Assembly: GCA_965199825.1 (NCBI GenBank)
Contig: OZ241329.1
Coordinates: forward strand, 192,001 to 256,000
DNA length: 64,000 nucleotides
Origin: Bdellovibrionales bacterium
Lineage (GTDB): Bacteria; Bdellovibrionota; Bdellovibrionia; Bdellovibrionales; UBA1609
Reading direction: 5' to 3'
The notes under the pieces are model-generated. The model did no database searches. It worked only from the letters and a program-made list of their open reading frames with translations, and had not been told where the DNA came from. The translations under genes were made by a program, and so were the position numbers. Of this stretch, positions 5,474 to 48,927 are shown in pieces (position 1 is the stretch's first letter; each line of letters begins with the position of its first letter).

Positions 5474-6643
5474 TTATACGACAGAAAAGTTTGGCAACTG
5501 GAGTTGCCTTTGTTTTGCCAAGTTTTGGGCCGCCACACTGTAGCCGCCGTCGCTCCCATCAATCAGATGGATATGGCCACCCTGGTTAAGATTTTCAACC
5601 AAACAGGTCATCAACGCATGCGACGAAACAAAAGTGCCGTAGAAAATTTCTCCCCGCTCGTACAAAACATGAAGAAGAGTTTCGACCGCCACAATTTCGT
5701 TCTTTGAGCAATCCAGCACCAAGCGCAATGTGTCGTCGTACTTTCGATAATCAGAATGGTTTGAAAGTCCATTGATATAGGCCTTGGCATCAAATGGAAC
5801 AGGTAAACCAAAACGAAATGCCCATTGGCACACCAAAATTTGGGTCAGTCGACCCAATGCCTGCATCGAAAATTTATTTTCGATCAATCTCCATTCTTTG
5901 CGAATCGATGCGAAGAAACCCTGATAACGAAAACTTTTTTGCGAAACTGGGTTGGCAATATCGAGATCGCCACCAAATATTTTTTTAAACTCTAAAAGTA
6001 AATTTTCAAAAATTTTTGTGCTGTCAAAAAGTCGGGGCTGTACAAGTAATGACAACATCTGCCCCCGTTGCGAGGCCAGCGGCTGCCAACGACAAGATAA
6101 GGAGTTTAATGCGAGCCCCGAAATTTCTTGAGCTGCTTTGATGCTGTATTTTCGTGGGCTGGATTTAATTGTGTATTCGGCCCAGGCAAGCCCACCCCCA
6201 CGAATAAAGGCGGTGCACTTTCCACTGGCGCCATCAAATTTTGCGACCTCGAGCTTTGATCCTGAACTTTTGATTTCTTGTACACTCACCACACCAACAC
6301 GAAGTTCGATATCAAATTGCTTGATACAAAACAGTTTGTATTGAGCCAATTTTTTTTTGATTTCATCGATCTGACTGGGAGCGATCAAAAAGCTTGCACC
6401 GTCGCCACCAAACACAAAGGCCAATTCGTCAGAGGGCATTACAGATTGGACAACCACAATTGCGCCCGCACCAATGGTGTTGACGTCGCGATATTTTCCT
6501 AAGGAAATATGCTGAGTCGATTTTTCGACATCACAGATCACCACGAACCAATCGTTTGGGACCTCAGTATAAATACGGTCTGTTGAGAGAAGATCAAAAT
6601 TAGAAAAAGATTTTAAATTTTTATAAAAATCATTAAGGCCCAA
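5474..6643 (-). CDS. DUF3095 family protein (nucleotidyl-cyclase-like)
   Basis: Motifs VPNDWFVVICDVEKST, YRDVNTIGA, FVFGGDGA, LSCRW, SDYRKYDDTLR and HIHLIDGSDGGY. Probable TTG start at 6643 after GGGGGA; the ORF track starts at 6691. Confidence 0.85.
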   Translation of the reverse strand: MGLNDFYKNLKSFSNFDLLSTDRIYTEVPNDWFVVICDVEKSTQHISLGKYRDVNTIGAGAIVVVQSVMPSDELAFVFGGDGASFLIAPSQIDEIKKKLAQYKLFCIKQFDIELRVGVVSVQEIKSSGSKLEVAKFDGASGKCTAFIRGGGLAWAEYTIKSSPRKYSIKAAQEISGLALNSLSCRWQPLASQRGQMLSLLVQPRLFDSTKIFENLLLEFKKIFGGDLDIANPVSQKSFRYQGFFASIRKEWRLIENKFSMQALGRLTQILVCQWAFRFGLPVPFDAKAYINGLSNHSDYRKYDDTLRLVLDCSKNEIVAVETLLHVLYERGEIFYGTFVSSHALMTCLVENLNQGGHIHLIDGSDGGYSVAAQNLAKQRQLQLPNFSVV

Positions 6644-9074: not shown

Positions 9075-12000
9075 TAGGGCCAACCTGTGGACCATGAAAC
9101 ATAGCAATAACTGCCAACACGTTGAATATTATAAATAGAACCTGTTGCTGCTCGATTTGATGATACCGGCATCATCGATGTTGTTAAAGAAGTTGATCCA
9201 TTATCAGAATAACAATTTACAGTGGTTGTTCCAGCCGCAGATCCGCGCACGGCAACTGTATACGACCCACCATTAGTTAAATTGTTTATATTCAGAGTGA
9301 TGTTTGTTTGTGAACCAACATTCCACTCCAGCGCTGAATTCGAACTTGTATCAAACGTTAATGGCGAAGTTGCCGATGAACTGGTTGCTGTGGTAGTCGA
9401 TCCGCCTCCGCTTGCGGGAGTTGACCAAGATAAAACTCCGCTGCCGTTGGTGGTGAGCACTTGGTTTGCTGCTCCATCAGCGGTGGGCAATGTCCAAATT
9501 GTGTTTCCGGCATATGCGGCAGATTGAAAACCAGAATATCCATTTGCAGAGCCAGAAAGTCGCATTGTGCCTTTAACATCGAGAGCTGCACCCGGCGTTG
9601 TTGTGCCGATGCCTACGTTACCCGACGAATCAATCCGCATCCGTTCTTGGATACCAGTGCGATTATTTGCGGCGGTATGAAAGGCCAACGCACCGGCACG
9701 CCAATTGTTATCAAGGCCAGGCCCTGCATCCACCGCATCGATTGCTGCGAGTGAATCGACATTTCCACTGATGGTTAAGCCTGAAAATGTTAAGGCAGGA
9801 ACTCTCTGGCCAGTTTGAACACTCGCATTGTTATGAATATTTATTCCAATGACAGAGGTGTAAGCACTTGAATCCGAATTTGTACTCGTCACATTGACTT
9901 GCGGAACTCCAGCATAAAGAGGCGCATCGGGATATTCAAGTTGAACCCCACCCGACGTCCCAGACCAACTTCCGACTTGAAGTGCAGCCATGGGCGCAGT
10001 TGTTCCGATCCCTACATTGCCGTTGGCCAATATTCGAACTGCCTCTGAACCATTTGTTGATAAACCAATTGTGTTTGTAGCAGGCGAAAACATTCCGGTG
10101 TTTGTATTTCCATTAAATGCATAACCAGGAGCAGCGGCTGTTCCTGTAGATGCAGGTAATCCTCCGCTTGCTGAAGCCCATGAGGGAAGCCCACTTGCCA
10201 CAGTTAAAACTTGTCCGTTTGTGCCTGCAGGCAATCTTGAAAGTCCGGTGGTTGAAGAAGCGTAGAGTATGTCGCCGACTGAGTAAGAGGATTGCCCAGT
10301 TCCACCATTTGCAGCGGTGACGCTGCCGCTGATCTGCGATGATGGTAAACTAATATTTGTGCACGACATCACATCGCCCACAGAATTGTAAGTCAGAGTC
10401 TGATTACTCAAACAGGAATTTGCAAATTGATTGGTGCCCGTGACTGTGGATCGCAAATCTGTCATTGCGGTAAATCCAGGCGACCAAGCAGAACCATTCC
10501 ATCTTAGGGCTTGCCCTGCGGTTGTTGGTGCACTTGCGCTGACTGCACTTCCTTGAAGTTTGGTGACCGTGAACGCACCAGCGTCGGTCATTGTTGCATC
10601 ACCTGAAGGTGTGACCGCTGCGGCTGTTCCGCCGCTGTTACCAACGAGTATTTTGCCGTCGGCAAGTGTGTTACTCAATTTGTTATTAAAGGTTGTGTAG
10701 TCCGAATTTGAGAGGAGACCCGCAGTCACCGACGCTGCCGAAGCCATTGGAATATTTAATGTGTGGGTGCTTGATCCGCTTACGAATGCAGGAGTCGTTC
10801 CTGTCGTGCCCGTCGCAAAATTTTGCGAAGTGGTTGTTAAACCATTGAGCGACGATATTCCAGTCCCTGCAGGTGTCGACCATGCCAGCACTCCGCTGCC
10901 GTTGGTGGTGAGCACTTGATTGGCGCTACCATCGTTCGCAGGCAAGGTCCAAATGGTTGAGCCAGCTACAGCTGCGGGTTGAAATCCTGCGTAGCCGCTT
11001 GTTGATCCCAACATGCGAATCGATCCATTGACATCCAAAGCAGCGCCGGGAGTGGCGGTTCCAATGCCCACATTTCCACCTGCGGGATTGAGGGTGAGGG
11101 GAAATGATGTTCCATAGGTGTTGTGGGACTGAATCCACTGCGCGTAATTTGTTGATGCGGTTCCGAGTCCAAAACTCAATATTTGATTGCCTGATTCAAA
11201 TGACACTGCCCCAAGGCTTGATGCGCTCAACGACGGATCAGATGAGATCACAGCACCTTGTGTTCCAACCTGAAGACGAGCTCCTGGATTTGTTGATCCG
11301 ATACCGACGTTGCCATTCGCATCGATTCTCATCTGTTCTTTGTTGACCCCAGCACCAATTGAATTTCCGCTTGTTGAAAACAAGAGCGCCGTATTGTCAT
11401 CGGTATATCCTGGTTTTCTTTGTGCGGTGATGGAGGCCCATGTTGAACTGGTACTCGCAGCTGAGCTAAATGCAATCGTTCCAAGATTGGAATTGTCCGA
11501 TGGATTCGATTGCGAATCATGAAACCAAAATGTTGGAGCCGTAGCCGCAATATCTAATCGACCTTGTGGATTTGTTGTTCCAACCCCAATATTTCCGGAA
11601 CTGTCGATGCGCATCCGCTCAACAGAATTTGTTGAGAAGCCTAAAGTGGCGGTTGACGCGAGATACATTCCATCATTTGCTTCATTCGAAAATGAGTAAG
11701 AAGGCGCTGACGGACTTCCGTTACTTGCCAAAACAGAGGACGAAGTTTGAATGTAACCCACAACATCGAGTGGGCGCACTGGAGCAGTTGTGCCAATGCC
11801 CACATTTCCAAAAGCATCCATTCGCATGCGCTCTAAACCACCCGTACTCGCCGCAAGTGTCGAAGCCAAAGGCCTAAACCAGCCGGTGCCCGCATCGCCG
11901 GAAAAAGAATATGTTGGAGCTGCAGCAGTTCCTGCAGCAGAAGTCATATTTGCTCCACCGGTCACGGGCGAAACCATACCCGCGCTTGATAAATTAAATA

Positions 12001-14302: not shown

Positions 14303-14309
14303 GACTAAG

Positions 14310-14337
14310 GTATCGACAGATTGAGCTAATTTTTTGA
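14310..14337 (-). promoter_or_regulatory. Sigma28/FliA-like promoter of fibre 1
   Basis: TCAA-N16-GTCGATAC. GTCGATA ends 8 nt before the GTG start. Confidence 0.6.
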
Positions 14338-14484
14338 GTAATACTTAAGGTTTGTTTCAAATTGAGGCGCGGAAGACAAATATTTGAAACGTATTGGACC
14401 TGGGCGAGCAAGTTTTCTAAATTAACTGAATCCGCACTTCAACAATTTTCCGAGATGGTAAAATCAGACTTTCAAGGTCTTTCA

Positions 14485-16563
14485 TCAAAATAAGAGATTA
14501 AAGGTTTTGAGGACCGCATTGTCGTTGGTGATAAAAAGTGAAGATCCACTTACGGCGATTGCGGTCGGATAAATGAGCGCTCCCGGCAAAGCTCCAAGTA
14601 AAAAACCCATCTTCGTTCGACTCCCCAAAATTGTAGACACAACTCCTGCAGGAGTAATCTTACGAATCAGATTATTATTGGTGTCTGCAACATAGAGATT
14701 TCCTGCAGAGTCGACAGCGATGCCTTGAGGCAAATTAAAAGATGCCGCTGTTCCTTGGCCATCGTCAAACCCTGCTGTTTGAGTTCCAGCAAGAGTTGTG
14801 ACTTCTCCACTTGGAGAAATTTTTCGGATGGTTTGATTTCCGGCGTCGGTAACATACAAGATGTTAGAAGAATCAATTGCGATATAAGCTGGTGAACCAA
14901 AACTTGCCGCTGCTCCGTTTGCATCTGTAGATCCAAAATTGCCGGCAGTGCCGGCAAAAGTTGAGACATATCCAGTTGGAGTAATTTTCCGAATCGTAAA
15001 GTTGTATGAGTCAGCAACAAAAACATTGCCAAAAGAATCACATGCCAATCCCACAGGATTATTAAAACTTGCAGAAGCGCCCTGCCCATCATTTGATCCA
15101 GAAACTCCATCGCTCCCAGCAAAAGTCGTTACCACACCCGCTGGAGAAATTTTTCGAATTGTAAAACGATTTTGATCCGAAACAAAAAGGTTCCCATCTT
15201 TATCCAAGGCTATACCTGTTGGAACTGAAAATCGGGCGCTAGTTCCAACGCCGTCAGCAGAGCCGGAGTTGGTGGAACTTCCTGCAAACGTTGATACATT
15301 TCCCGCTGAATCGATTTTTCGAATATCGGAATTGTTCTGTTCGGTGACGTACGCATTATTTAAACTATCGACCACAATTCCGTAGGGGTGGGCAAACGTG
15401 GCCGCAGCGCCTTGCCCATCGTCTGAACCAAAAACGATGTTAGATCCAGCAATCGTGCTCACTATGTTTGAGGTGTTTATTTTTCGAATTTTGAAATTTC
15501 CAAGATCCGAAATATAGAGATTTCCATTAGTATCGATTGTAATTCCAAAGGGAAAATAAAACCTCGCATCACTGCCATGTCCATCGACATCTTGATACTG
15601 TCCAGCAGCGCCTGCCAAAGTTGACACAACCCCTGAGCTGGTGATTTTTCGAATGGTGCTATTAAAACTGTCGACTACATAAACATTTTTTAAACTATCA
15701 ACTGTAATACCTGAGGGATTGTTGAAAGTCGCAGCAGCGCCTGTTCCATCATTCGACCCATTGAAACCAGGCGAACCTGCGAGAGTGCTTACTAAACCTG
15801 AGGGAGTGATCATCCGAATTGTTGAGTTCACGGTATCGGTGACATAAATTTGATCCATATTATCAATTGCAATCCCTTGAGGGAAATAAAATTGTGCGGC
15901 ATTACCTAAGCCATCAGACGATCCTGAATTGCCCGTCGAGCCAGCAAATGTGCTAACAGTACCAGAGGATGTAATCTTCCGAATTGTGCTATTAAAGGCG
16001 TCAGCAACGTATAAATTTCCGGAGCTATCGATAGCAATTCCAGTTGGAAAATTAAATGTTGCAGCAGACCCGACTCCGTCATCAGACCCAAGTACTCCGG
16101 GCGTTCCAGCAAAGGTGGTGACCACTCCAGTAGCGGAGATTTTTCGGATTGTTTGATTTAATGAATCGACAACAAATACATTTCCGCTTGAGTCACCTGC
16201 TATACCTCTAGGACTATTGAACTGTGCAGCTGATCCAATCCCATCAGCAGAGCCTTTAACAAAACTGCCAGCAAATGTGGTAACACTTCCACTAAGAGTC
16301 ATCTTGCGAATCGAATTGGTACCAACGTCAGTAATCAAAATATTGCCCGAAGCATCTACAGCAAGAGAATAAGGCTGATAAAAACTAGCTCCACTGCCGA
16401 CTCCATCGATGTTTCCGGGACCGTAGACTGAGCCTGCAAGTAAAAGAATTTGATTCAAAAGAGTCGCTTTAAAAAATCCAAAAGGTATTTGAGCAACCGC
16501 AGCTGCTACAAATGTGAATTGAAAAACCAAAATTGAAACAGCAAAAACTTTTATAAATTTCAT
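14485..16563 (-). CDS. Secreted NHL-repeat beta-propeller protein (~692 aa); partner of fibre 2
   Basis: ATG at 16563 lies 4 nt after the fibre stop. Signal peptide MKFIKVFAVSILVFQFTFVAAAVA, then QIPFGFFK, then about 11-12 repeats of FxxPxGIAxDxxGNxYVxDxxNxxIRKI. Confidence 0.9.
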   Translation of the reverse strand: MKFIKVFAVSILVFQFTFVAAAVAQIPFGFFKATLLNQILLLAGSVYGPGNIDGVGSGASFYQPYSLAVDASGNILITDVGTNSIRKMTLSGSVTTFAGSFVKGSADGIGSAAQFNSPRGIAGDSSGNVFVVDSLNQTIRKISATGVVTTFAGTPGVLGSDDGVGSAATFNFPTGIAIDSSGNLYVADAFNSTIRKITSSGTVSTFAGSTGNSGSSDGLGNAAQFYFPQGIAIDNMDQIYVTDTVNSTIRMITPSGLVSTLAGSPGFNGSNDGTGAAATFNNPSGITVDSLKNVYVVDSFNSTIRKITSSGVVSTLAGAAGQYQDVDGHGSDARFYFPFGITIDTNGNLYISDLGNFKIRKINTSNIVSTIAGSNIVFGSDDGQGAAATFAHPYGIVVDSLNNAYVTEQNNSDIRKIDSAGNVSTFAGSSTNSGSADGVGTSARFSVPTGIALDKDGNLFVSDQNRFTIRKISPAGVVTTFAGSDGVSGSNDGQGASASFNNPVGLACDSFGNVFVADSYNFTIRKITPTGYVSTFAGTAGNFGSTDANGAAASFGSPAYIAIDSSNILYVTDAGNQTIRKISPSGEVTTLAGTQTAGFDDGQGTAASFNLPQGIAVDSAGNLYVADTNNNLIRKITPAGVVSTILGSRTKMGFLLGALPGALIYPTAIAVSGSSLFITNDNAVLKTFNLLF

Positions 16564-16567
16564 TTGT

Positions 16568-19500
16568 TTATTGAAATCCTGCGATCCATGAGACGTACAC
16601 GGTCGTGCCAATGCGTTGAAAGCTATATACGGTTTGTTGACCCGCGCTACGGCTGCCATTGGCAGGGCTGTAAAGAAACGTGAGTCCCGATTGTGCAAAC
16701 ACACATTGAGTCGCCGTAGTTTCGGTAACTGCCAAAATGTACGTGCCCCCATCAAGCATATTTGCAAAAGTGGTGTTTGTACACGCCACACTCATGGATT
16801 GAGCATTGCCATTATTCCAATCTACGCTAGACGAAGAATTGATTTTTGTCGCTCCACCACTGCCGGTCGATCGCGTTTGACCGCGAACTTCTAAAGCCGC
16901 CTGTGGGTTTGTTGTTCCAATCCCAACATTGCCGTTGGTGTGCAGTCGCATCAGCTCGCTGCCGCTCATCAAAAACATGAGTGCGCGACTCGATCCGGAG
17001 CCGTTTTTTTCGGTGCCAATAAAAGCATCTGATCCAACACCCGAATACTGGTTAAAACCAAAAGTCAGACGTTCATAATCGCTGGGATTATTCGCGAGAG
17101 TGTTAGTGGTGCGGTAAACTTCAACCACCGCAGTCTGATCGGTTTGACCACCGATTTTTAAATCTGTCGCCGCAGTTGAGCTCTGAATAATTGCGGTTGC
17201 TCCTCCAGGTCCAACAACGTGGAGTCCTCCGAGTGGCGCAGTTGTTCCGATCCCAACACTTCCGCTGGGAAGAATACGCATCGCTTCTGCACCATTGGTA
17301 GCTAAACCAATTGTGTTTGTGTCCGCACCAAACATTCCGGTATTTGTATTTCCTAAAAATGCATACCCAGGTGCAGCCGCCGTTCCTGGTGCAGCCGGAA
17401 GTCCGCCACCCCCACTTGCAGCCGACCACGAGGGAATTCCGCTTGCTAATGTTAAGACTTGCCCGTTCGCGCCTGCAGGCAATCGCGAAAGTGCGCTTGT
17501 AGATGAGGCATAGAGCAAATCACCCACGGCATAGTTGGATTGGCCCGTTCCGCCGTTGGCCGTTGCAACACTGCCAGTAATTTGCGACGTCGGTAAACTG
17601 ATGTTTGCACACGACATCACATCGCCCACCGAGTTGTAGGTCAGGGTTTGATTGTTCAAACACGATGAAGCAAATTGGTTTGTTCCAGTTACTTTTGATC
17701 TTAAGTCCGTCATGGCGATAAAGCCGGGCGCCCACGCAGAACCGCTCCATCTTAGAGCTTGTCCTGCGGTTGTTGGTGCAGTGGCGCTAACTGTTGTGCC
17801 TTGAAGTTTTCCGACGGTGAACGCACCAGCGTCGGTCATTGTTGCATCACCTGAAGGTGTTACTGCTGCGGCTGTTCCGCCGCTGTTACCAACAAATATT
17901 TTTCCATCAGCAAGAGTGCTGGTGAGTTTGTTTGTGAAAGTAGTGTAGTCCGAATTTGAGAGGAGACCCGCAGTCACCAAAGCCGTTGAGGCTAAAGGAA
18001 TATTTAAGGTGTGAGTGCTTGTTGCTGAAGTGAACGAAGGTGCAGTGCCGGTTGTGCCCGTTGCAAAGGTTTGCGAAGTGGTGGTTAAACCATTGAGTGA
18101 CGATATCCCAGTCCCTGCAGGTGTCGACCATGCCAGCACTCCACTGCCATTGGTGGTGAGCACTTGGTTGGCGCTACCATCGTTCGCAGGCAAGGTCCAA
18201 ATGGTTGAGCCAGCTACAGCTGCGGGTTGAAATCCTGTATAACCGCTTGTGGAGCCCGACATGCGGATCGCGCCATTAACATCCAAAGCCGCGCCGGGAG
18301 TAGCGGTGCCGATACCGACATTTCCACCGGCTGCATTGAGCACGAGAGGAAAGGATGACCCATAGGCATTATGTGATTGGATCCACTGGGCATAATTTGT
18401 TGATCCAGTACCAAGTCCAAAACTTAATATCTGATTGCCCGATTCAAACGACACTGCCCCAAGGTTTGATGCGCTGAGCGACGGATCAGATGAAATGACC
18501 ACGCCTTGTGTTCCAACTTGAAGTCGAGCACCTGGGCTTGTTGTTCCGATTCCGACATTACCGGAAGCATCGACCGTCATCCTTGCCGTATTATTAGTCT
18601 GTAAGGTTAGAGGAAGACTATTGTAGGTTCCAACTTGCAGACCGTTTGTCGTCTCGATGATTTGGGCCTGATTTGTTCCCCCACCAGAATTATTAAATAA
18701 AGCAATACTCGAATAGTTGGCTGTTCCAGATGGATAAATATTAAGAGAGGTTGCGTAATTCAAGATCGAAGATTGCAGCATGGTATCACCATTGCCGTAC
18801 AAAGTTGAAAATGTACCGCCTGTTGGGATTATGACTGACCCAGACACTCGAGCGTTTCCAACAATGTCTAAAGCTTGAGCTGGCGCAGTTGTTCCAATAC
18901 CCACTTGTCCGCTGGCTGTTACACGGACTACCTCTGCACCATTGGTAGATAAACCAATTGTGTTTGTAGCTGGAGAAAACATTCCGGTATTTGTATTTCC
19001 CGAAAATGCATACCCAGGAGCTGCAGCCGTTCCGGCAGACGCAGGTAAGCCTCCGCCCGATGAAGCCCATGAGGGCAATCCACTTGCGACTGTTAAAACT
19101 TGTCCGTTCGTGCCCGCTGGCAATCGTGAAAGAGCAGTCGTTGACGAAGCGTAAAGCACATCACCAACCGCATAAATGGTTTGGCCCGTTCCACCGTTTG
19201 CGGGCGTGATCGATCCCGTTAATTGTGAAGAAGGTAAACTAATGTTTGTGCACGCCATCACATCGCCCACAGAGTTGTAAGTCAGCGTTTGATTGCTCAA
19301 ACATGAATTTGCAAATTGATTAGTGCCTGTGACTGTTGAACGAAGATCAGTCATTGCGATAAAGCCTGGCGACCAACTTGAGCCGCTCCATCTGAGAGCT
19401 TGGCCTGCGGTTGTTGGGGCAGTGGCACTGACGGCGCTGCCTTGCATTTTTGCAACTGTCAATGCACCCGTGTCGGCCATTGTGACATCGCCTGAAGGTG

Positions 19501-24676: not shown

Positions 24677-24683
24677 GTCTAAC

Positions 24684-24710
24684 TTATCGACAATTTTTTG
24701 GTATTATTAA
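24684..24710 (-). promoter_or_regulatory. Sigma28/FliA-like promoter of fibre 2
   Basis: TTAA-N15-GTCGATAA. GTCGATA ends 8 nt before the GTG at 24676. Confidence 0.7.
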
Positions 24711-24779
24711 GCAGTTCAGTTCGAACTCATAAAAACACGTCCAAAGGTCTTGATACGACAAGACGATGGTCAAGCCCAT

Positions 24780-24984
24780 TTATTTTGAACGAAACGAAGC
24801 CATGACCATGTCATAACAACTTGCGGGCGAAAACGTATTCACAATTAAAGTTGAACCCATATTATTTTGAATTTTATATTCAACAGTATTTCCGTTTTGT
24901 GTCGAAATTGATGTAAATGGTCCACTTGGCGTCGCGTGTTGAAATGCGTTGATGTAAAAAAAGATCATCGCTTTGTTTTCATTC
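24780..24984 (-). pseudogene. 3' fragment of a second copy of the 234-aa partner gene
   Basis: Translates to MIFFYINAFQHATPSGPF...NTFSPASCYDMVMASFRSK, matching the C-terminus of 32891..33595. The 5' part and signal peptide are missing. Confidence 0.85.
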
Positions 24985-25029
24985 TCAACCAGTCATGAAG
25001 CAAACGAAATGTCATTCGCCGCATTAAAA

Positions 25030-25210
25030 TAACCGTTGCTGCACTTGTACAAAGGTTTTGAGTCTCATATTCGATAAAAAAATTTTTGTCTGTATCAAAA
25101 ATCTGTAAACGCAGATTAACAGGATTATCTAGTAATGGGTTTGGCCCTGAAGAGGAGATGTTAAAGCATTCATCAAATATAATTTTTTGCAGCACATCAA
25201 ATAAACACAA
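25030..25210 (-). pseudogene. Degenerate 5' remnant of a sixth fibre gene
   Basis: SSSGPNPLLDNPVNLRLQIFDTDKNFFIEYETQNLCTSA resembles the intact SSSGSNPLLDNSVNLRLQVLDPNKSCILYEETQNINTSS. Similarity stops abruptly. Confidence 0.85.
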
Positions 25211-25269
25211 ATAGTTTATAAGCAGTAATGTTAGGGCAATTAAGACACCATCAATTAACCCTAGAGAAA

Positions 25270-28200
25270 TTAATTGCAGAATGGGGCGTTCGAATCTTTA
25301 GCGCAAAGATAAGCTTTTAGCTTTTCATTTTCAGCTTTCAGCGCCGCGATCTCACGCTCTTCACTTTTAAACTTCGCATAGAGCTCTTTAACAGCGTTAA
25401 CAATAGTCCAAATAATAGAATCATTCGTAAGATGCAAAAAGCCTTTATCGTCAGTACTCACCGCTTCGGGAATTACCTTAAGTGCATCTTGGGCTTTTAC
25501 TCCAACAAATTCTTTATCAGATGGAAGCTGCAAAGGATTATTATTTTTGTATTTAAAATAAATTGTGTTTAATCCATTGAGAGCATCAAGCCCTCGAGTG
25601 AATGGAGCACGAATCTCTTTTAGACGCTCGTCAGATGCAATTGTCCATGTGCTGGTGCCAGGTTTTGCTGCTGAGTCGGTACCAAGCTGAAGTAAGTATG
25701 TTGGATTTGTTGTACCAATCCCAACTTTTCCAGAACCGCTTGGTTTTATGATAATGTTTTGACTAGTAGAATTGTTAAAACCCGAAGTGATGAATAAATC
25801 TTGGCCTGTAGGAGACGTGATAGACTGATGTAGAATATTGCTATCATATCCCATTGCTATGTTACCGTTGAAATCTATATTGCCATACTCGTCGAGACGA
25901 AAGTAATTTCCATTTGAGGCTTCAACTTTAAATCCCGGAACTCCACTGTTGTAGGGGTAAACAACATGAAGCTTAGCACTCGGCGCACTTGTACCAATGC
26001 CAACGTTGCCAGTTGTTGCGTCGATTCGCATCTTCTCGATGCCAGCCTGTTGAAATAGCAATGGAACATTCAAAGTGTATGTATTTATAAAAGTGTTTGG
26101 AGAGGTGGTAGAGCCTTGAGAACCAACTCGTAAGGTTGCTCCATAAGAAGAAAATGATGTTTGTGCACTTCCCGCGGTATTTAAATTTTCAATCGTTTCT
26201 TGAATAACACTTCCGCTATTTCCAGAGACGTGGAACAAGCTGTTCGGCGCCGTTGTTCCAATCCCAACATTACCGCCCGAAGAATTGATCGCAAGTGGCG
26301 CAGGGCCCACCGCCCCATAGAATGCCCTGATCTCACCGTATCCTGAATTCGAGTTCGTACCATGTGCAAACATCGCAATATTAGCGTTGCCACCGCCAGT
26401 AACTCCTGACCCGTCCGCCGATGTTGCGATAATCCCATTGGCGTTATCCGCGACGATATTGCCGTTGACCTCTAGTGAATTGAGCGGATTTGTTGTGCCG
26501 ATACCAACGTTGCCTGCGTCGGTAATACGCAAGCGCTCGTTATTGCCACCGCCGACGTTAAAAGCGAGATCACTCACAGCACCGCTAGGATTAAGCAAAA
26601 TGTTGCGAATCGTGGCCGTCGCACCATAAGTGTTGGCAGTTGAAAAAATAAGATCGGCTTCGTTGCCGGCTGCCTGTGTTGCCGAGTTGACCAAAGCTAG
26701 AGCATTTGTGGCGCCTCCGGAATTCGATTTGCCAAATGAAACAAGTGGAGAATACGCAGGTAGCGAAGTCGAACTTGATCCGACTTGGAAAGCAAATGAC
26801 GGTGATGTTGTCCCGATGCCGACGGCGCCATTCGCTAGAACTCGCATCGCCTCAACTCCATTCGTTGATAAACCAACTTGATTTGTAGCGGGTGAAAAGA
26901 TACCTGTATTTGTATTACCTGAAAATGCATATCCCGGAGCTGCAGCGGATCCTGCCGAAGCAGGTAAGCCTCCACTCGCCGATGCCCACGAAGGCATTCC
27001 ACTTGAAACCGTTAAGACTTGTCCGTTCGTGCCCGCAGGAAGTCGTGAAAGCGCAGTCGTCGATGAAGCATAAAGCACATCCCCAACTGCGTAGCTAGTT
27101 TGCCCTGTTCCACCATTCGTAGGCGTCACACTGCCGGTGATTTGTGAGGATGGTAAACTAATATTTGTGCACGACATGACGTCGCCCACAGAATTGTAGG
27201 TCAAAGTTTGATTGCTCAAACATGAATTTGCGAATTGATTTGTGCCGGTCACCGTTGAACGAAGATCAGTGATTGCAATAAAATTCGGCGTCCATGCAGA
27301 GCCACTCCATCTGAGTGCTTGCCCCGCAGTTGTAGGTGATGTCGCACTCACAGGCGATCCTTGAAGTTTTGCAACCGTAAATGCACCGCTGTCACTTATT
27401 GTTGCATCGCCTGAAGGTGTGACTGCTGTTGCTGCTCCGCCGCTGTTGCCGACAAAGATTTTTCCATCAGCAAGAGCGCTGGTGAGTTTATTTGTGAATG
27501 TTGTGTAATCGGTATTACTGAGGAGACCCGCAGTCACCGAGGTTGCTGAAGCTAACGGAATATTTAATGTGTGAATACTTATTCCACTCACGAAAGCGGG
27601 AGCTGTTCCTGTTGTGCCCGTTGCAAAACTTTGTGATGTCGCAGTTAACCCATTTAAGCTTGTTATTCCAGTTCCTGCAGGAGTTGACCATGCGAGTATT
27701 CCACTACCGTTTGTAGTAAGAACTTGGTTTGCGCTACCATCGTTCACAGGTAAAGTCCAAACTGTGCTACCCGCAGCAGCTGCGGGTTGAAATCCTGTGT
27801 AGCCGCTGGTTGATCCCGACATGCGGATCGCACCTTTGACGTCAAGAAGAGCTCCGGGATTTGTTGTTCCGATACCAACTTTCCCGCTAACACTTGGCTT
27901 TAAAATAATATTGTAACCTGTAACAGTGTTTCCAAGTCCAGAGGTGATATATGTGTTTCCTGCGGAGGTAAACGCAGCGCTGTTTACATTACTGTCATAA
28001 GGAGCCAAGGTAAGATTAGATCCTGCTCCGCCATTAACAAAAAGTTGACCAGCGCTATCGACATAAAGATTCGATGTGCCATCACTAGCTTGCCATTCCT
28101 GAAGATTCCCAGTTTGGCTTGCGGCTCCTTGTATCACCAAGCCCTTATTAGCGACCGCACCGGTATTAAGAAAAAGCTGAGCTGTGATGTCCGTCGTTAC

Positions 28201-32787: not shown

Positions 32788-32794
32788 GTCTAAC

Positions 32795-32821
32795 TTATCG
32801 ACAATTTATGGATATTATTGA
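32795..32821 (-). promoter_or_regulatory. Sigma28/FliA-like promoter of fibre 3
   Basis: TCAA-N15-GTCGATAA. GTCGATA ends 8 nt before the GTG at 32787. Confidence 0.7.
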
Positions 32822-32890
32822 GCAGTTCAGTTCGAACTCGTGGAAACACGTCCAAAGGTCTTGATACGACAAGACGATGGTCAAGCCGAT

Positions 32891-33595
32891 TTATTTTGAA
32901 CGAAACGAAGCCATGACCATGTCATAACAACTTGCGGGCGAAAACGTATTGGCAATCGTTGTCGCACCCGTGTTGTTCTGAATTTTATATTCAACAGCAT
33001 TTCCGTTTTGTGTCGATGCTGAAATAAAGGGTCCACTCGGGGTCGCAGTTTGAAATGCGATGATGTACGAAAATATCATCGCTTTATTATTATTCACAAC
33101 TAAAGTTGGGGAAAATGAACTCACATCCGGCCCACTAGTTGAAGTGCCCGAATTATCCAGCTGTGTGCTGACCAATGGATTTTTAAATTCGTGACACGAA
33201 ATTTCTCGGTGGGTGTTACTTCCACTCATTGTCATTGTGGTTTTGAAAGTCGAGCCACCCGTCGTGACCTTGGTATAATAAATCGCCATGTTTGTGGCCG
33301 AATCGCATTGCTTACTTGCACCAGGAAAGTTGACCGCTTGAGTGTAGGTGTTCGAGCCCGTATCAGTGACACTGCTTAATGTTTTTGAGTTGTCATAAAG
33401 AATCGCACACACAATTAAATTACCCGCAACAACTGTAGAACTAAACGCAGTCGTCACAAGTGTGCTTCCGCTTGCGGTTGAATAAGCCTCTGCTTTTTGA
33501 AAGTATGTCATTTGAGGCGATGTGCGCTTCCACATTGCTGCGGGAATGACGCCCGCTTGAGCAGCAAAAAATATAAATAAGAATGGTACCATCAC
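32891..33595 (-). CDS. Secreted Ser/Thr-rich beta-sandwich protein, 234 aa; partner of fibre 4
   Basis: Starts 7 nt after the fibre 4 stop with SD GGGGAG. Signal peptide, then GVIPAAMWKR. VAGNLIVC...SVTDTGSNTY resembles tail- or surface-associated beta domains. Confidence 0.85.
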   Translation of the reverse strand: MMVPFLFIFFAAQAGVIPAAMWKRTSPQMTYFQKAEAYSTASGSTLVTTAFSSTVVAGNLIVCAILYDNSKTLSSVTDTGSNTYTQAVNFPGASKQCDSATNMAIYYTKVTTGGSTFKTTMTMSGSNTHREISCHEFKNPLVSTQLDNSGTSTSGPDVSSFSPTLVVNNNKAMIFSYIIAFQTATPSGPFISASTQNGNAVEYKIQNNTGATTIANTFSPASCYDMVMASFRSK

Positions 33596-33602
33596 ACTCC
33601 CC

Positions 33603-36600
33603 TTACAGACCTGTTACCCATGACACATACAAGTCTGTGCCCATAACAAGGAAGGTGTAAAGCGTATGTTTCGATGCTGTGGTCGCTCCATGATCAGGCG
33701 GCATATGAACTGTCAATGCAGTCGTGCCCGCATCGCTGTAAGCCAAAAATGAACATGTGCCCGATGTTGCCGACTTCACCGCAAAAGAATAAGCGCCGCC
33801 GTCTTTTAAATTATTTAATTTAAAGTTCGAAGCACACGTTGCGGTAGTAAATTGCAAATTGCCGGTTGAGAAATCGACTGCTGTGGTAGTGGGTGCACCC
33901 CATGAAGAGGCAGGACCATTGATCGATGCGCCTGCAACCTCTAACGCTGCACGAGGAGTTGTTGTGCCGATGCCGACATTCCCGCCACTCGTGATTCGCA
34001 TCCGACCCGTCGACCCAGTTTCAAAAGAAAGATCTTGTGATCCACCTGTACCGATACGACCCAAGGGTGTGGTGTCGTATTCAATATAAACATAATCACC
34101 ACTACCGGAGTTAGGCCCGAATAAAGAGCCCGAGTTTGAGTTGGTGAAGAATCCGTTTGTGCCTCTGATGTTTCCTGCGACGTCCAGTTTTTGTCCCGGC
34201 GTCGTCGTACCGATCCCGACATTTCCAGAGCTTAGAATCCGCACTTTCTCCGTACCAGCGGTAGCAAAACCAAGAATTTGAGTTCCGCCCAAGAACATCC
34301 CGGTGTCACCACCGTTTGTAAATGTGAACGAAGGTGCAGCAGCAGACCCGTTTTTACCAAGGATTGCCGCTGAGCTTTGTATATCGCCTGTGACATCAAG
34401 TTGGACAGCTGGGTTGGTTGTCCCAATACCAACTTTCCCGCTCTGATCAATTCTAAATCGCTCGGTGACGGCACCCGCACCATTGGCGGTTGTTGAGAGT
34501 GCGATGTAGGATCCATGAGCGGTGCTTGACCAATTTTGAGTTGCTCCAAATATGACATTTGTACCCACGTTATTGGCTTGACCACCACCCGTTGAACCCG
34601 ATCCATAAATTTCACCAAGAATGTCTCCGCTTTGAATAGCTGAAGTTGGACCAACGAAAGTGCCTCGTAGATTAAGTAAATTGAGTACCGGATATCCAGA
34701 AGCGGCAGAGCCCATGTAGTTGACAGCTGCCAACGATGGATTTTGCGAACTTGATGAATCACGATTCATAACTGCCATCACTGGCGATGCATTAGTGGCG
34801 TCGACATCTAAAAGATAATTAGGAGCGGTGGTTCCAATTCCAACATTGCCGCTTGCCGTAACTCTCATGGCTTCTACGCCATTCGTAGATAAACCAACTG
34901 TGTTTGCAGCTGGCGAAAACATTCCAGTATTTGTATTTCCCGAAAACGCATACCCAGGAGCCGCCGCAGTTCCTGCAGCTGCAGGTAACCCACCACTAGC
35001 AGCAGACCATGATGGAATTCCACTTGCGAGAGTTAAAACTTGTCCGTTCGTGCCCGCGGGCAATCGTGAAAGTGCGGTGGTTGACGAAGCATAAAGTAAA
35101 TCGCCTACTGCATAATTGGTTTGACCTGTTCCGCCATTTGCCGCTGCAACTGAACCAGTGATTTGAGAAGCAGGCAGACTAATGTTTGCACACGACATCA
35201 CATCGCCCACTGAGTTGTAAGTCAGTGTTTGATTGCTGAGACATGACGATGCAAATTGATTTGTTCCAGTGATGGTTGAGCGCAAATCTGTAATCGCAAT
35301 AAAATTTGGAGTCCAAGCTGACCCGCTCCATCTGAGGGCTTGTCCAGCTGTCACAGGTGTGGTTGCGCTCACTGCTGAGCCTTGCAGTTTAGTGACAGTG
35401 AATGCGCCAGCATCGGTCATTGTTGCATCACCCGAAGGAGTCACAGCGGTTGCGACTCCGCCACTATTTCCAACATAGATTTTTCCATCAGCAAGAGCTG
35501 TGGACATTTTTCCGTTGAATGTTGTGTAGTCCGCATTCGAAAGGAGACCCGCAGTCACCGAGGCTGCTGAAGCTAGAGGAATATTTAATGTGTGAGTGCT
35601 TGTAGCTGATGAAAAGGCCGGAGCAGTTCCGGTTGTGCCGATTGCAAATGTTTGAGATGCCGTAGTTAATCCATTTAAACTTGAGATACCAGTTCCTGCA
35701 GGAGTCGACCACGCGAGCACGCCGCTGCCATTTGTGGTAAGCACTTGGTTAGCGCTACCATCGTTCGCAGGCAAGGTCCAAACGGTGCTGCCCGCTGCGG
35801 CTGCAGGTTGAAATCCTGTGTATCCACTGGTGGACCCCGACATACGGATTGCACCTTTGACGTCGAGTGTGGCGCCTGGGTTTGTGTTATTGATACCCAC
35901 GTTCCCAGCGGCCTGTATTGTTATTCTCTCAGCCGCATTTGTGAAGAGTCCCATTTCTAGTGCGCGTGGCTGTTGGATAAATGTAATCGAATTGCTTGGT
36001 GGAGCTGCACTACTCTGTACAGAATCGAATGCGAACCAGCCCGCATTCACGTCACCATGATAAACTTGAAGTTTGCCAGCAGGTGCCGTAGTCCCGATCC
36101 CAACATTTCCCGCGGGTGATGCAAGTGTGCCGTTCATCCCAGTGGCAAAAATCGCATTTCCAATATTTAAAAAATTATTTGTGGCCGCAGCTGGAGTGTC
36201 GACAGAATTGCTTGTACCAATCAAAATATTGTTGCTGCCTGTTTGCAATGTCTGTGAGCCGACACTATTTCCAACAGCAACGTTACTTGAACCTGTGCTA
36301 TTTTTTGATAATGCAAAATAACCGAGTGAAGTATTGTTATTTCCAGAGGTTGTCCCATACTGTGCCTGCCAACCAAAAGCGGTATTACTTGATCCGCCCG
36401 CATTTTGAATCAGAGCCTGAGCCCCTGTTGCTGTGTTGTAGTTTCCGGCTTGATTCAATTGTAGAGCTTGATATCCGAGAGCGGTGTTATTGCTCCCACC
36501 TGTGTCTTGCTGAATAGCTTCAAAACCGATCGCAGTATTTGAGACGGCAGCCGTCGTCATCGATCCACTTGCTAAAGTAAAATAACCAACTGCAGTATTT

Positions 36601-42356: not shown

Positions 42357-42362
42357 ATAATC

Positions 42363-42389
42363 ATATCGACACAATTGGCCAACTTCATA
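42363..42389 (-). promoter_or_regulatory. Sigma28-like -10 box of fibre 4
   Basis: TGTCGATAT. GTCGATA ends 7 nt before the GTG at 42356; the -35 is weak. Confidence 0.55.
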
Positions 42390-42543
42390 AGTCTTGGTTT
42401 GAGACGAATCTGCGAGACAAAGGTCTATTTAAGGCAGTTGGTAAACATCAGCGGCGCGAGTAACTTGCGCGGTTGGCCACTGAGCCTGATATCGATGTAG
42501 AGATTCAACTTCCACGCTTACATCTTTACTAACCACAACTGGA

Positions 42544-45500
42544 TCACTTGTACTTGTGGAGCATATTTTCAATTCGGTCCAATCGAGATTTGATTTCAGC
42601 ATTTTCTTGTTTAAGCTTTTTGTTCTCGTCCTCGAGTTTTTGAACCTGAGTATCCACTTCCACTTTATCAACCTTCGAGGCGATCATTCGGTCCTGGATA
42701 ACTTGATGACTCTTCATGCCTGTGATGCGGTTGTTGAGTGTTTTTATAGCCTCTGTAATCCAAGGAATAAAGGCGTCATAATAAACTTGTAAGAAGCCGT
42801 CTTCATCTTGACGAACGAATTCAGGCGCAACCTTTTGTACCTCTTGAGCTTTGTAACCCGTTTTGCGGTTGTCGGCTGACGAAGTCTTGAAATTATAAGT
42901 CACGGCCTGAAGTTGCAGGATCCGATCAAGAGCAAAATTGCTTGAAACATCCTGGAAGTTTTCTTTGAGTCGTTCATCTGAAGAACAGGCGATGCCTGAA
43001 CCCGAAGAAGCCGGTGTGATTGTGCATGTTCCATCAACGTTTTGGAAGTTTGCAACTGCTACACCTGTACCGACTGAAGCACTTCCCACATGAAGAAGTT
43101 TTGCTGGAGCCGTATTACCTATGCCGAGGTTGCCGTTTGAATTGAGACGCATTTTTTCAATACCCGCTTGTTGGAACTGAAGAGGAATGCCAACGGTGTA
43201 AGTGTTGATGTAAGTGTAAGGAGTAGATAAATCTCCCGCGGCACCGACCCGCAGGTCTGAGCCATACGCCCCAAATTCTGCTTGCGCGGTCCCACCACTG
43301 CCTACATAACCATTTTGAATATTTTCACCGACGCTTCCACTTGAATTCGAACCGTTGATTTGCAGATTGGTGCTCGGGTTTGTAGTCCCGATGCCGACGT
43401 TGCCGCTGACGATCATCCCGTTAGTTGGAGCTGCCGTAGTCCCAGCATAAGATCCGACGCTCATACCGCCCGCAACATCGAGTCGAGACTGTGCAATGCC
43501 GGCACCCACTATCACATTCTGGCCAGAGCTTGACTGAAGAGAGATTTGCGATCCATCAAGGGACAAGACTTTGTATTGAAAAGCATCGTGATCATAAGCT
43601 TTGATTGATCCAGTGCCGCTATTGTAATTCATTTCTATTCCAGCACCTGTTGATGGCGACGAAGTTCCCATCATTCGAGATCCTCCAGCGACATCCAAAG
43701 TTGCTGCTGGGGCCGTAGTTCCGATGCCTACGTTGCCAGCAACGTACATGTTGCCGGAGTTATCAAGCGAACTAATTAGACCGTTTGAATTCAAATATCG
43801 GACCGCAAAAGCGGTGGTTGATGGCACTCCAGTAGTCACTTGCATTGTATAAGCGTTTCCCGAACCTGGGTTGCCGGTCACTGCGAAAACGTTTGAACCG
43901 TTATAATTCAAGGTGGCCCCATATGGCCCAACATTAAAAATATTGTTTAAGTTTGTCGATCCCACTACATCGAGCGCGTTCGAAGGAGTTGTAGTACCTA
44001 TACCAACGAATCCAGTAGAAGAGATGCGCATCGCCTCTGCCCCATTCGTCGATAAACCAATTGTATTTGTAGCCGGTGAAAACATCCCCGTATTCAAATT
44101 TCCCGAAAACGCATACCCCGGCGCCGCGGCTGTTCCCGCAGCGGCAGGAAGTCCACCACTTGCCGAAGTCCATGACGGCAATCCACTAGCGAGTGTTAAA
44201 ACTTGTCCGTTCGTCCCCGCAGGCAGTCTAGAAAGTGCAGTCGTCGATGAAGCATAAAGCACGTCACCAACTGCAAACGTTGTCTGACCAGTTCCACCAT
44301 TTGCTGGCGTAACTGATCCGGTAATTTGCGACGAGGGTAAACTAATATTCGTACACGACATGACGTCGCCCACAGAATTGTAAGTGAGCGTTTGATTGCT
44401 CAAGCACGATGACGCGAATTGGTTTGTACCCGTCACTGTTGATCGAAGATCAGTCATCGCAATAAAGTTTGGAGTCCATGCAGAGCCACTCCATCTTAGC
44501 GCTTGTCCCGCAGTTGCTGGGGCTGTGGCACTCACTGCTGAGCCTTGCAGTTTAGTCACCGTGAATGCGCCGGTGTCCGCCATTGTTGCATCACCCGAGG
44601 GTGTGACTGCGGTGGCAACTCCACCGCTATTCCCAACATAGATTTTTCCATCAGCAAGTGCTGTGGACATTTTGCCGCTGAATGATGTGTAATCTGCATT
44701 TGAAAGGAGACCTGCAGTCACTGAGGCTGCTGATGCTAAAGGAATATTTAGTGTGTGAGTGCTTGTAGCTGATGTGAACGAAGGTGCAGTTCCTGTCGTT
44801 CCATTTGCAAATGTTTGCGACGGTGCAGTTAAACCATTTAAGTTTGATATTCCAGTGCCCGTTGGTGTGGACCAAGTGAGTATTCCACTGCCGTTTGTAG
44901 TCAAAGTTTGATTTGCTGTACCATCGTTCGCAGGCAAAGTCCAAACTGTGCTTCCTGCCGCAGCTGCAGGCTGAAATCCTGTATAGCCGCTTGTGGAACC
45001 CGACATGCGGATGGCACCTTTGACGTCGAGAGATGCGCCTGGGGTGGCTGTACCGACTCCAACAAAACCATTTCCAGACGGCATAAGTATGATATTTTTA
45101 GCAGCATTATGACTGATGCCGCTTGTGATATAGGTATCACCAATTGATGAATAAGCTCTGTTGAAGCTGATATTAGAATCCGCAGCCAGAACAAGAAGGC
45201 CATCAATTAAAAACTGCCCGTATTGATCGTAAGTGACATTGCCAGCGTTGGCTGATGACATCGAAAGCACAGCACCTGTTCCCGCCGGCGGTTGAAAAAC
45301 GTGAAGCAGTGCTGAGGGTGCGGTCGTGCCGATGCCGACGTTGCCGCCGGATTTCAGATAAATAGAGTTTGCAGCCGCGCCTTTTTCAACTGTAAGTGGA
45401 ACGACGCTATTTGCGCCATCACGGATTACGAAACTGGTGTTTCCATTCTCTCCAATCAACCAAGAGGACGATTGCGCGTAGAAATTAATATTACTGTAAT

Positions 45501-48500: not shown

Positions 48501-48927
48501 TATTTGTGGACGATGGTAGAACAATAACCCGAAGATAGCGCATCTCTCCAGGTTGCGGATTGTAAATGCAAACTTGGCCGTTTGAAACAAGACGCCCATT
48601 GATCGCACTTAAATTTTGATAAATATTTGCCATGCTGTTGCCAGCATCGGTGGTTGAGCGCTTTGCATCCGTAGTCGCAGAGCCCACGTTGATATTAAAA
48701 TAACCATTACTTGCCGCGGTGTTGACGAGTTCAGACTCTTCATAAAGAACACAAGTTTTGTTGCTATCTAAAATCTGAACCCGAAGATTAACCGAATTGT
48801 CCATCAGCGGATTTTGGCCATTAGCCGAATTATAAAGCCGACCATCCAAAGTAAAACTTTGGGGCGCTTCGCTTAAAGCAGAAGCTTGAAAACTTATGAG
48901 AATAAGAAGAGAGATCAAATTGTCCAC
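42544..48927 (-). CDS. Fibre 5: MAT-like fibre protein, 2127 aa, with C-terminal S74 chaperone
   Basis: Conserved N-domain, one shaft module, then GIACSSDERLKENF...TGYKAQEVQKVAPE and a coiled coil. Confidence 0.92.
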   Translation of the reverse strand: MDNLISLLILISFQASALSEAPQSFTLDGRLYNSANGQNPLMDNSVNLRVQILDSNKTCVLYEESELVNTAASNGYFNINVGSATTDAKRSTTDAGNSMANIYQNLSAINGRLVSNGQVCIYNPQPGEMRYLRVIVLPSSTNIQVTLAPDMKLNSVPTALVAESLNGITTTNILQADSATQLSQINLSNIFSNSNYPKLTSLLAGNANYVSSSSSAGATLPSYATTSPPTTPTAGSVWYDSTSGTVKYYNGTTTQVLSSASGALSGDVTGTLGANTVSTVGGSSASNLHAAELLANSATSADTNSMIVRRDASGNFSGSAVGASSLVLRDSASNSVTVRAPATVSASYTVTWPAAAPLANGQVLSSTTAGVLSWSAPYSDSAARAAISATAPLNYNSTTGVLALSGTAAGDLSGSFPTPKVSGLQGTPISGSTPTNAGQVLRYDGSTQYAPAFLGIADLRSSLVGSAQLLPTNCTSTQTLSYSSVTDTFSCVSLSVSATNFANQAQNAVLAGPSSGGVGAPTFRALTAADLPTGAFDTTYFKDGGNSFGADAALGTSDNFNLSLKSNNVVGMTLSPLGKVGIGTTSPNAQLEIDVNAAGGAPSAILINNTNAAAASGSQFVMQTHGVTGFSFGSNGNDISMDTNGGNFYFGANHVLSGYQFYNGGTRLMGLGSNGNLFVQGNVGVGTTNPSATLQLKAGTTTAGTAPLKLNSGPLMTTAEDGAIEYDGTNYYLTAGTTRTAIPLSGGSASYNTVGAGAGSAGSPSLSFSSDADTGFFDSGSNNVIGVAAGGTNIFNLSSAGMVSPVTGGATVTSAAGSAAAPTYSFAGDTGTGWFRPLASTLAASTGGLERMRMDASGNVGIGTTSPGAKLDVVAAGNPAIRVLSGNNSYYSAYGLGRTFEESVWGIASNAGDFSPTSVAGDIVFGNVSSGSLILTSHQGAINFTTGTTDTTKMTLTSAGNVGIGTTSPGALLAVGPSSQFKVDSAGNVVAASYSTSGQAVFQNTMQADVFNTTPYAPSSSTVSLPPGYSGIFDNTNQADNSFSGIAIDAKNGAATFQRAYLGAVSNSSGSTPSIVIGQQTGATAYAERMRIDPSGNVGIGTTAPSQQLHVYSNTGNALAAIETSQNNPSATASLLVTSNFSNYSNINFYAQSSSWLIGENGNTSFVIRDGANSVVPLTVEKGAAANSIYLKSGGNVGIGTTAPSALLHVFQPPAGTGAVLSMSSANAGNVTYDQYGQFLIDGLLVLAADSNISFNRAYSSIGDTYITSGISHNAAKNIILMPSGNGFVGVGTATPGASLDVKGAIRMSGSTSGYTGFQPAAAAGSTVWTLPANDGTANQTLTTNGSGILTWSTPTGTGISNLNGLTAPSQTFANGTTGTAPSFTSATSTHTLNIPLASAASVTAGLLSNADYTSFSGKMSTALADGKIYVGNSGGVATAVTPSGDATMADTGAFTVTKLQGSAVSATAPATAGQALRWSGSAWTPNFIAMTDLRSTVTGTNQFASSCLSNQTLTYNSVGDVMSCTNISLPSSQITGSVTPANGGTGQTTFAVGDVLYASSTTALSRLPAGTNGQVLTLASGLPSWTSASGGLPAAAGTAAAPGYAFSGNLNTGMFSPATNTIGLSTNGAEAMRISSTGFVGIGTTTPSNALDVVGSTNLNNIFNVGPYGATLNYNGSNVFAVTGNPGSGNAYTMQVTTGVPSTTAFAVRYLNSNGLISSLDNSGNMYVAGNVGIGTTAPAATLDVAGGSRMMGTSSPSTGAGIEMNYNSGTGSIKAYDHDAFQYKVLSLDGSQISLQSSSGQNVIVGAGIAQSRLDVAGGMSVGSYAGTTAAPTNGMIVSGNVGIGTTNPSTNLQINGSNSSGSVGENIQNGYVGSGGTAQAEFGAYGSDLRVGAAGDLSTPYTYINTYTVGIPLQFQQAGIEKMRLNSNGNLGIGNTAPAKLLHVGSASVGTGVAVANFQNVDGTCTITPASSGSGIACSSDERLKENFQDVSSNFALDRILQLQAVTYNFKTSSADNRKTGYKAQEVQKVAPEFVRQDEDGFLQVYYDAFIPWITEAIKTLNNRITGMKSHQVIQDRMIASKVDKVEVDTQVQKLEDENKKLKQENAEIKSRLDRIENMLHKYK

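Follow-up and report, generated by a model that had tools for sequence, protein, structure and literature searches.

The window analysed here is a stretch of 64,000 nucleotides from a Bdellovibrionales genome (GCA_965199825.1, contig OZ241329.1, positions 192,001 to 256,000), and it contains five long minus-strand genes encoding fibres of the MAT type, 1742-2923 residues in length, whose N-terminal regions are 73-92% identical (Table 1). The five fibres end in two different ways. Fibres 3 and 5 end in an S74 chaperone-protease domain (Peptidase_S74, PF13884, E 2.4e-8 and 4.9e-14) and, as a preliminary description of this DNA had stated, no secreted gene adjoins them. Fibres 1, 2 and 4 share a different C-terminal domain, the tip, which is 32-34% identical among them over the last 95 residues, as against 8-15% identity to the S74 fibres. 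The motifs by which this domain had been described hold in all three tips for GG[S/T/A]Y (GGSY, GGTY or GGAY) and YVSWxxG, but fibre 1 has a degenerate form of the DxxxGN start. Behind each tip fibre stands a gene encoding a secreted protein, its partner, with starts at -1, +4, and +7 (GTG) or +10 (ATG) relative to the fibre ends, in keeping with the offsets first reported (-1, +4 and +7).

The three partners are unlike one another. Partner 1 matches LamG and partner 2 matches NHL repeats in Pfam, both as predicted, and a blastp comparison of partners 1, 2 and 4 finds no mutual match at E 1e-3. Partner 4, earlier called a small beta-sandwich, has no Pfam family match and no close homologue, and its single-sequence fold model, at a predicted local distance difference test score (pLDDT) of 31, is too low to use; the part of partner 1 outside LamG, earlier called a beta-helix, also has no Pfam match. 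Directly after the signal peptide, partners 2 and 4 carry the short tags QIPFGFFK and VIPAAMWKR, which had been noticed before, as had the lack of such a tag in partner 1. The reading that we favour, with a probability of roughly 0.68, is that the tip, which is predicted to have the XD1 fold, serves as a socket for the short aromatic end-tag of a secreted, exchangeable adhesin.

On sequence criteria the window fibres are members of the MAT family, the tip fibres being of the non-S74 kind represented by Bd0726. They possess a signal peptide and a conserved N-terminal beta domain of ~130 residues, 5-12 GxVG[IV]GT shaft repeats per fibre, as in the beta-helix/capping-loop shaft of MATs, and a variable C-terminus that is either S74 (SDxxxK; fibres 3 and 5) or non-S74 (XD1-type; fibres 1, 2 and 4). 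A profile grown from the window fibre N-termini matches residues 27-162 of a 1959-residue MAT of strain HD100 (E 2e-19), and fibre 3 matches Bd2133 (PDB 8ond) by phmmer (E 5e-6). From the homologues described in PMC10769870 we infer that the fibres are homotrimeric and surface-displayed. Their shafts consist of a repeated module, present in 1-3 copies per fibre, so fibre length varies by module number.

Partner 2 is 45% identical to NHL partners found behind related tips, while partner 1 is chimeric: a LamG partner is joined in it to a body which in other partners comes directly after the tag. The array also holds a decayed sixth unit that the preliminary description had missed: positions 24677-24989 are a copy of the 3' end of partner 4 with its spacer (32788-33100), 87% identical, pointing to duplication of fibre and partner as one unit and subsequent internal deletion. 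A secreted GH26-like protein (PF02156, E 2.6e-6) is encoded immediately upstream of the array and on the strand that it occupies (window 49002-50000, minus strand).

Table 1. Fibre and partner genes of the window, and other MAT loci of the same genome (positions prefixed C1)
Feature	Position	Strand	Remarks
Fibre 5, MAT-type, 2127 residues	42544-48927	-	ends in S74 chaperone-protease domain (SDERLK, 42964-42981); coupled partner absent
Fibre 4, MAT-type, 2923 residues	33603-42374	-	predicted XD1-fold tip, ~33606-33878
Partner 4, secreted, 233-234 residues	32891-33595	-	N-terminal tag GVIPAAMWKR at 33524-33553
Fibre 3, MAT-type, 2505 residues	25270-32787	-	S74 end, SDERLK at 25618-25635; no coupled partner
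Remnant of a sixth fibre and partner unit, decayed	24677-25269	-	fibre 5' end (~25037-25243) joined to copy of partner 4 3' end
Fibre 2, MAT-type, 2702 residues	16568-24676	-	predicted XD1-fold tip, ~16571-16825
Partner 2, secreted NHL-repeat propeller protein, 692 residues	14485-16563	-	N-terminal tag QIPFGFFK at 16468-16491
Fibre 1, MAT-type, 1742 residues	9074-14302	-	predicted XD1-fold tip, ~9077-9358
Partner 1, secreted, 813 residues	6633-9074	-	LamG module and second body; canonical tag absent
Second MAT array	C1:1322100-1341433	-	four S74 fibres, then a tip fibre with secreted partner at -4
Lone tip fibre	C1:2532012-2536724	-	LamG-like partner at -1
MAT with fused glycine-rich end domain	C1:1283889-1288661	+	

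Coupling of fibre and partner genes

The genome from which the window comes contains 12 MAT genes: five with the tip domain, six with S74 and one with a fused glycine-rich end. A secreted non-MAT neighbour, at -4 to +7, follows all five tip fibres and none of the other seven MATs (0/6 S74, 0/1 fused glycine-rich); what comes next after an S74 fibre is nothing or another MAT. The earlier claim that fibre class predicts the downstream gene without exception thus holds within this genome (5/5 vs 0/7), but not across genomes, where 96 of 151 tips are followed by a partner. Fusion of LamG partner bodies to MAT shafts was considered and rejected, the long open reading frames concerned lacking shaft repeats in the parts fetched; the fused glycine-rich end is the only one of its kind in the genome.

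Of 401 genomes in the phylum, 85 have the tip domain, and at E≤0.001 it is present in 1808 cluster representatives; 149 of the best 150 matches have it at the C-terminus. To count its neighbours we took 160 loci, consisting of the tip matches listed (including 100 further ones that were fetched; 27 phylum matches fell outside) and two stretches of the genome itself, which gave 151 distinct tips, four of them from that genome. A partner was scored when the next gene lay on the same strand, started at -30 to +50, had a hydrophobic N-terminus and was not a MAT; this rule gave 98 tips, and 96 after the membrane proteins at L081 and L086 were removed by eye. The comparison set, 70 S74 loci from tip-bearing genomes (30 plus 40 more of the listed matches), gave 8 by the same rule; it was reduced to 69 by exclusion of L181, a pilin-like non-fibre gene, and L195, where the next gene is a MAT, was dropped from the positives. 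An adjacent secreted partner is therefore found for 96 of 151 distinct tips and for 6 of 69 S74 genes, which are only partly confirmed as MATs and include weak open reading frame picks at L178, L179 and L219. The odds ratio is 18, its significance being overstated since the genomes are related, and the partner share is 53-61% after tips are clustered at 50-70% identity. The coupling seen in the window, and the tag with it, extends across the phylum as had been anticipated.

None of the six positive S74 neighbours shows a tag by eye. Secreted genes that belong to other families and have no tag stand at -1 to +3 behind the S74 fibres of L207, L208 and L213; these may represent a different pairing.

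Bodies and tags of the partners

The 96 partners, scanned against Pfam over their first 480 residues, carry LamG, NHL, RCC1, Kelch, DUF5122, glycine-rich (with one GP38 match), TSP1, DUF285, Ig-like and TIG domains, and many match no family; 48 tagged partners alone comprise 23 body families. This diversity bears on the possibility that the partners are folding chaperones that replace S74 and are absent from the mature fibre, as is T4 gp38. Such a role would account for the complementary distribution of partners and S74, but it is hard to square with partner folds that are many and unrelated while the tip is conserved, with the one third of tips that have no partner, or with other non-S74 MAT tips, which fold independently. 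Because their folds are diverse and of adhesin type, we take the partners not to be chaperones, and we consider this the most improbable of the alternatives. An exchangeable adhesin held by the tip is the reading to which we return.

What the partners have in common is the tag. Its motif is present in 42 of 96 partners, as against 11 of 393 secreted-like proteins; tryptophan stands at mature position 8 in 20% of partners vs 1%, and glutamine at mature position 1 in 42% vs 9%. When 2510 open reading frames are ranked by a tag profile built on 40 partners from other genomes, anchored by hand, partner 4 comes third and partner 2 sixth. QIPFGFFK itself is found again, without change, on an unrelated body that follows a tip of 68% identity. 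In 56 partner pairs that have unrelated bodies and tips at least 60% identical, the tag shows an identity of 0.36 (against a baseline of 0.22-0.24 due to anchoring), the signal peptide one of 0.14 and the sequence beyond the tag one of 0.08. A strict cognate code between tip and tag was also tried and is not supported (p 0.07).

In one subclass of 10 tips, ending in V[NQT]W[SN]SG[YF] (an eleventh regular-expression match, L127, belongs to another class), the partners lack the N-terminal tag and 9 of 10 end in a P[WV]FFRG[YHF]-like sequence instead. This C-terminal tag (e.g. PWFFRGY) is found on no other complete adjacent partner. The loci encode 19 distinct C-tagged proteins, in which identity over the last 7 residues is 74%, vs 14% over the preceding 15; these proteins are homologous to each other and the pattern was defined post hoc. 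In the genome of the window the pattern has 0 matches among 1257. C-tagged partner genes occur as tandem triplets behind one fibre and also as solo genes.

Several individual loci illustrate the range of arrangements. L405 (2736-8850, minus strand) has one tip fibre and three tandem partners that are C-tagged, N-tagged (AQIIPFNFWK) and C-tagged. L406-L409, L315 and L318 encode solo secreted glycine-rich proteins of ~700-1900 residues, away from fibres, with the C-terminal tag at the end. At L181/L413 (2581-4752, minus strand), an N-tagged partner-type gene stands at +9 behind a pilin-like gene that has a weak S74 match.

Conservation of the tag could in principle be a by-product of linkage, with bodies recombining behind a stretch that travels with the tip and no interaction between the proteins. 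Tip and tag do adjoin on the DNA, and their overall co-variation is weak; yet the signal peptide is nearer to the tip than the tag is and is less conserved, and the C-terminal tags are remote from the tip and are retained in solo genes as well. We consider the linkage explanation very improbable, and prefer binding of the tag by the tip.

Homologues in phages

The tip has a remote homologue on viral contigs (HH probability 94%, E 1e-7). By a rule set post hoc, 40 of the 61 distinct tips from viruses precede a gene whose product opens, at the initiator methionine, with a hydrophobic tag. These tagged viral partners belong mostly to one family, most of them have no signal peptide, and two of their tags resemble bacterial ones. 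We looked for gp38 among the phage partners and rejected the identification: there is no GP38 match in Pfam or the PDB, the matches being collagen, glycine-rich, LamG/SPRY or compositional only. A phage origin is plausible. On one viral contig (L292, 1631-3678, plus strand), the tip-domain fibre and its partner both apparently have signal peptides.

The phage pairs are also pertinent to the question of whether the association would last. Binding of tag and tip might be transient, the fibre escorting its partner across the outer membrane or to prey contact and then releasing it. A cargo pool of this sort would suit the several partners per fibre and the solo tagged genes (700-1900 residues), and the accessible text of PMC10769870 describes no MAT export route. 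However, the bodies of the partners have folds of the binding kind, none of the 96 having a catalytic family as its best Pfam match (first 480 residues), and escort makes little sense for phages because their homologues presumably assemble on virions. We therefore rate release as improbable, and a partner that stays on the tip as the better reading.

Fold of the tip domain

Comparison with Pfam and PHROGs gives no family for the first tip and no family common to more than 3 of 31 members, and comparison with PDB sequences gives no significant match. The structure model of the tip is of high confidence (pLDDT 91), and its fold matches are the Pa223 spike knob (Z 7.1), which its authors termed TNF-like, a tailspike C-terminal domain (6.9), XD1 of CBA120 TSP4 (6.3-6.7), the KP1 baseplate protein (6.3), CpaA (4.9) and StcE (4.1), with TSP4, KP1 baseplate, CpaA and StcE among the top seven. 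On residues 79-180 of 7rfv (TSP4; VIA) the alignment covers 87 residues with Z 6.3 and a root-mean-square deviation of 3.1. Since these hits overlap the XD1 table in the accessible text of PMC8825819, we count the tip as an XD1 fold; the model is a mixed beta-sandwich superposable on TSP4 80-178. Foldseek on the PDB gives no match at E≤0.001, and the set that it lists is the same, plus T4 gp9 and gp10. The tip is thus predicted, at modest Z, to have the XD1 fold of phage proteins (T4 gp9/gp10, CBA120 TSP4), the function of which, according to the accessible text of PMC8825819, is not fully understood.

The top feature match of the tip is PF26209 (Phage_phiTE_241_C, a putative phage tail fibre C-terminal domain; 0.97, 213/256 features), a family found on about half of the cluster members; this is a feature-level lead only, and the family comes without a stated function. 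At L024 and L085 the tip is followed in frame by an extra domain of 120-170 residues, and the partner at L085 is still tagged.

Proposed mechanism and its weighing

In the mechanism that we propose, fibre and partner would be co-translated, at offsets of -1 to +10, and each would be exported on its own by means of its signal peptide. The fibre would trimerise, as in solved MATs, and removal of the signal peptide would free the tag at the new N-terminus of the partner, or, in one subclass, the tag would stand at the C-terminus. The tag would then bind the tip trimer, leaving the partner body (LamG; NHL, RCC1 or Kelch propeller; polyglycine sandwich; others) to contact prey or surfaces. Specificity could change by a swap of the body behind the tag, or by recourse to tandem or solo partner genes. 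Tentatively, and with somewhat less than even confidence, we extend this to a phage-derived plug-and-socket on the surface of predatory bacteria, in which the XD1 socket accepts any secreted protein with an aromatic tag at either terminus, so that a pool of tandem and solo heads would shift prey range with the fibre unaltered.

Several observations weigh against the docking of partners on the tip. By the strict rule 55 of the 151 tips lack an adjacent secreted gene; a partner lies slightly farther off or is frameshifted in 5 of the 55, and ~50, about one third of all tips, remain orphans. No tagged gene lies upstream of orphan fibres in the 17 informative loci among 20, and one orphan-tip genome lacks the usual partner altogether. 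The tag is absent from partner 1 and from the protein coupled to a fourth tip fibre (profile ranks 193 and 231 of 2510), and overall co-variation of tip and tag is weak (permutation p 0.07). The tag anchors were chosen by eye, the cleavage sites come from a heuristic rule, and the genomes are related. The fold matches are modest (Z 6-7, below 8), and the XD1 match ties with the Pa223 knob. In the accessible text of PMC8825819, moreover, XD1 is described for phage proteins as a spacer and for CpaA and StcE as a fold that binds glycans, and docking is shown for XD2/XD3, not for XD1. Neutral in this respect is a complex prediction of three fibre 4 tips with the first 32 mature residues of partner 4, which scored 0.02 in a job unlike the calibration.

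The main rival draws on some of the same points: the XD1 tip would itself be a glycan-binding adhesive, its neighbours independent, co-regulated surface proteins, and the tag a signal to a different apparatus for sorting or anchoring. In CpaA and StcE the XD1-fold domains do bind glycans (PMC8825819, accessible text), and they are among our fold hits; about one third of tips have no local partner, and tagged genes exist away from tip fibres (L181/L413, L315, L318, L406-L409). Against this, S74 fibres of the same genomes rarely have such neighbours, and the 6 that do are followed by proteins untagged by eye; the type of tag tracks the tip subclass, 9 of the 10 tips in one subclass being followed by the C-terminal tag; and the pairing also occurs in phages, where most partners lack a signal peptide. 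We regard an independent adhesive tip as unlikely, although it is the alternative to be taken most seriously, and retain the socket as the more probable function.

Taken together, the two-gene variant of the MAT fibre is real, widespread and apparently undescribed, and the docking of partner on tip is probable on the comparative evidence. Single-chain MAT tips explain only partly how Bdellovibrio-like predators recognise many prey. If the two-part fibre is true, the specificity of one MAT class resides in the next gene, and would be missed by tip-only assays and single-gene annotations. The 8-10 residue tag with its 95-residue socket would also form a compact display module and give XD1 a role. 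The extended plug-and-socket form would be the first docking function for XD1 and would explain a widespread phage pair of fibre and tagged adhesin.

Comparison with known systems

The closest relatives are the non-S74 MATs of B. bacteriovorus, exemplified by Bd0726 (Caulton et al. 2024, PMC10769870), which in the accessible text share the signal peptide, the N-terminal domain, S74 or non-S74 ends and mosaic shafts with the fibres described here. That text places the adhesive tip within one chain, and the window fibres, at 1742-2923 residues, are longer; its Table S1 labels the tip of Bd0726 as XD1-like. The 1959-residue HD100 protein CAE78684.1, which from strain, length and description is probably Bd0726, carries the tip (E 5e-23), and one B. 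bacteriovorus record (L229) has a tip fibre together with a tagged NHL partner; direct tests are thus possible in that species. The terms operon, neighbour, downstream and partner genes lead to no fibre-partner pairing in the main text and readable supplement of PMC10769870. In the wider literature searched, which lay mostly outside subscription papers, we found nothing on MAT partner genes or peptide docking to XD1 and no main-text mention of Bd0725-0727.

The preliminary description had proposed a cellular analogue of phage gp37/gp38. Its comparative predictions are borne out, tags being kept while bodies change, but the XD1-fold end and the linear tag, at the N- or C-terminus, make it an analogy only. 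The gp37 of S16 itself has a chaperone at its C-terminus that is cleaved off, a partition opposite to the one seen here. The T-even gp37-gp38 system (S16, PDB 6F45; PMC6851490, accessible text) likewise has a trimeric fibre, a separately encoded, variable adhesin and aromatic residues; some of our partners are polyglycine-rich, one with a Pfam GP38 match, recalling gp38, though here binding of partner to fibre is proposed only. In gp38, three tryptophans on a helical attachment domain bind the end of the gp37 beta-helix (PMC6851490), whereas our partners have a linear tag of 8-10 residues and unrelated bodies, and our fibres end in a separate globular domain. Conversely, gp37-gp38 has no XD1 socket, no linear tag and no signal peptides.

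A second comparison is with the branching domains of phages. In the Klebsiella phages KP32, K11 and KP34, a second receptor-binding protein is attached through a short peptide at its N-terminus to a gp10-derived domain of the first, as experiments have established (PMC13352976, accessible text). Here, as in that system and in CBA120 TSP4 (PMC8825819), the secondary protein bears, at its N-terminus, a short peptide that is conserved. The branching domain is a jelly-roll of the XD2/XD3 type, whereas alignments of our tip to TSP4 fall on XD1 (40-180, 79-180); our domain is C-terminal, its partners are diverse and probably monomeric, and the system is cellular and secreted. By analogy, the fibre and partner pair would work like both gp37-gp38 and the branching domain with its peptide, while lacking defining features of each.

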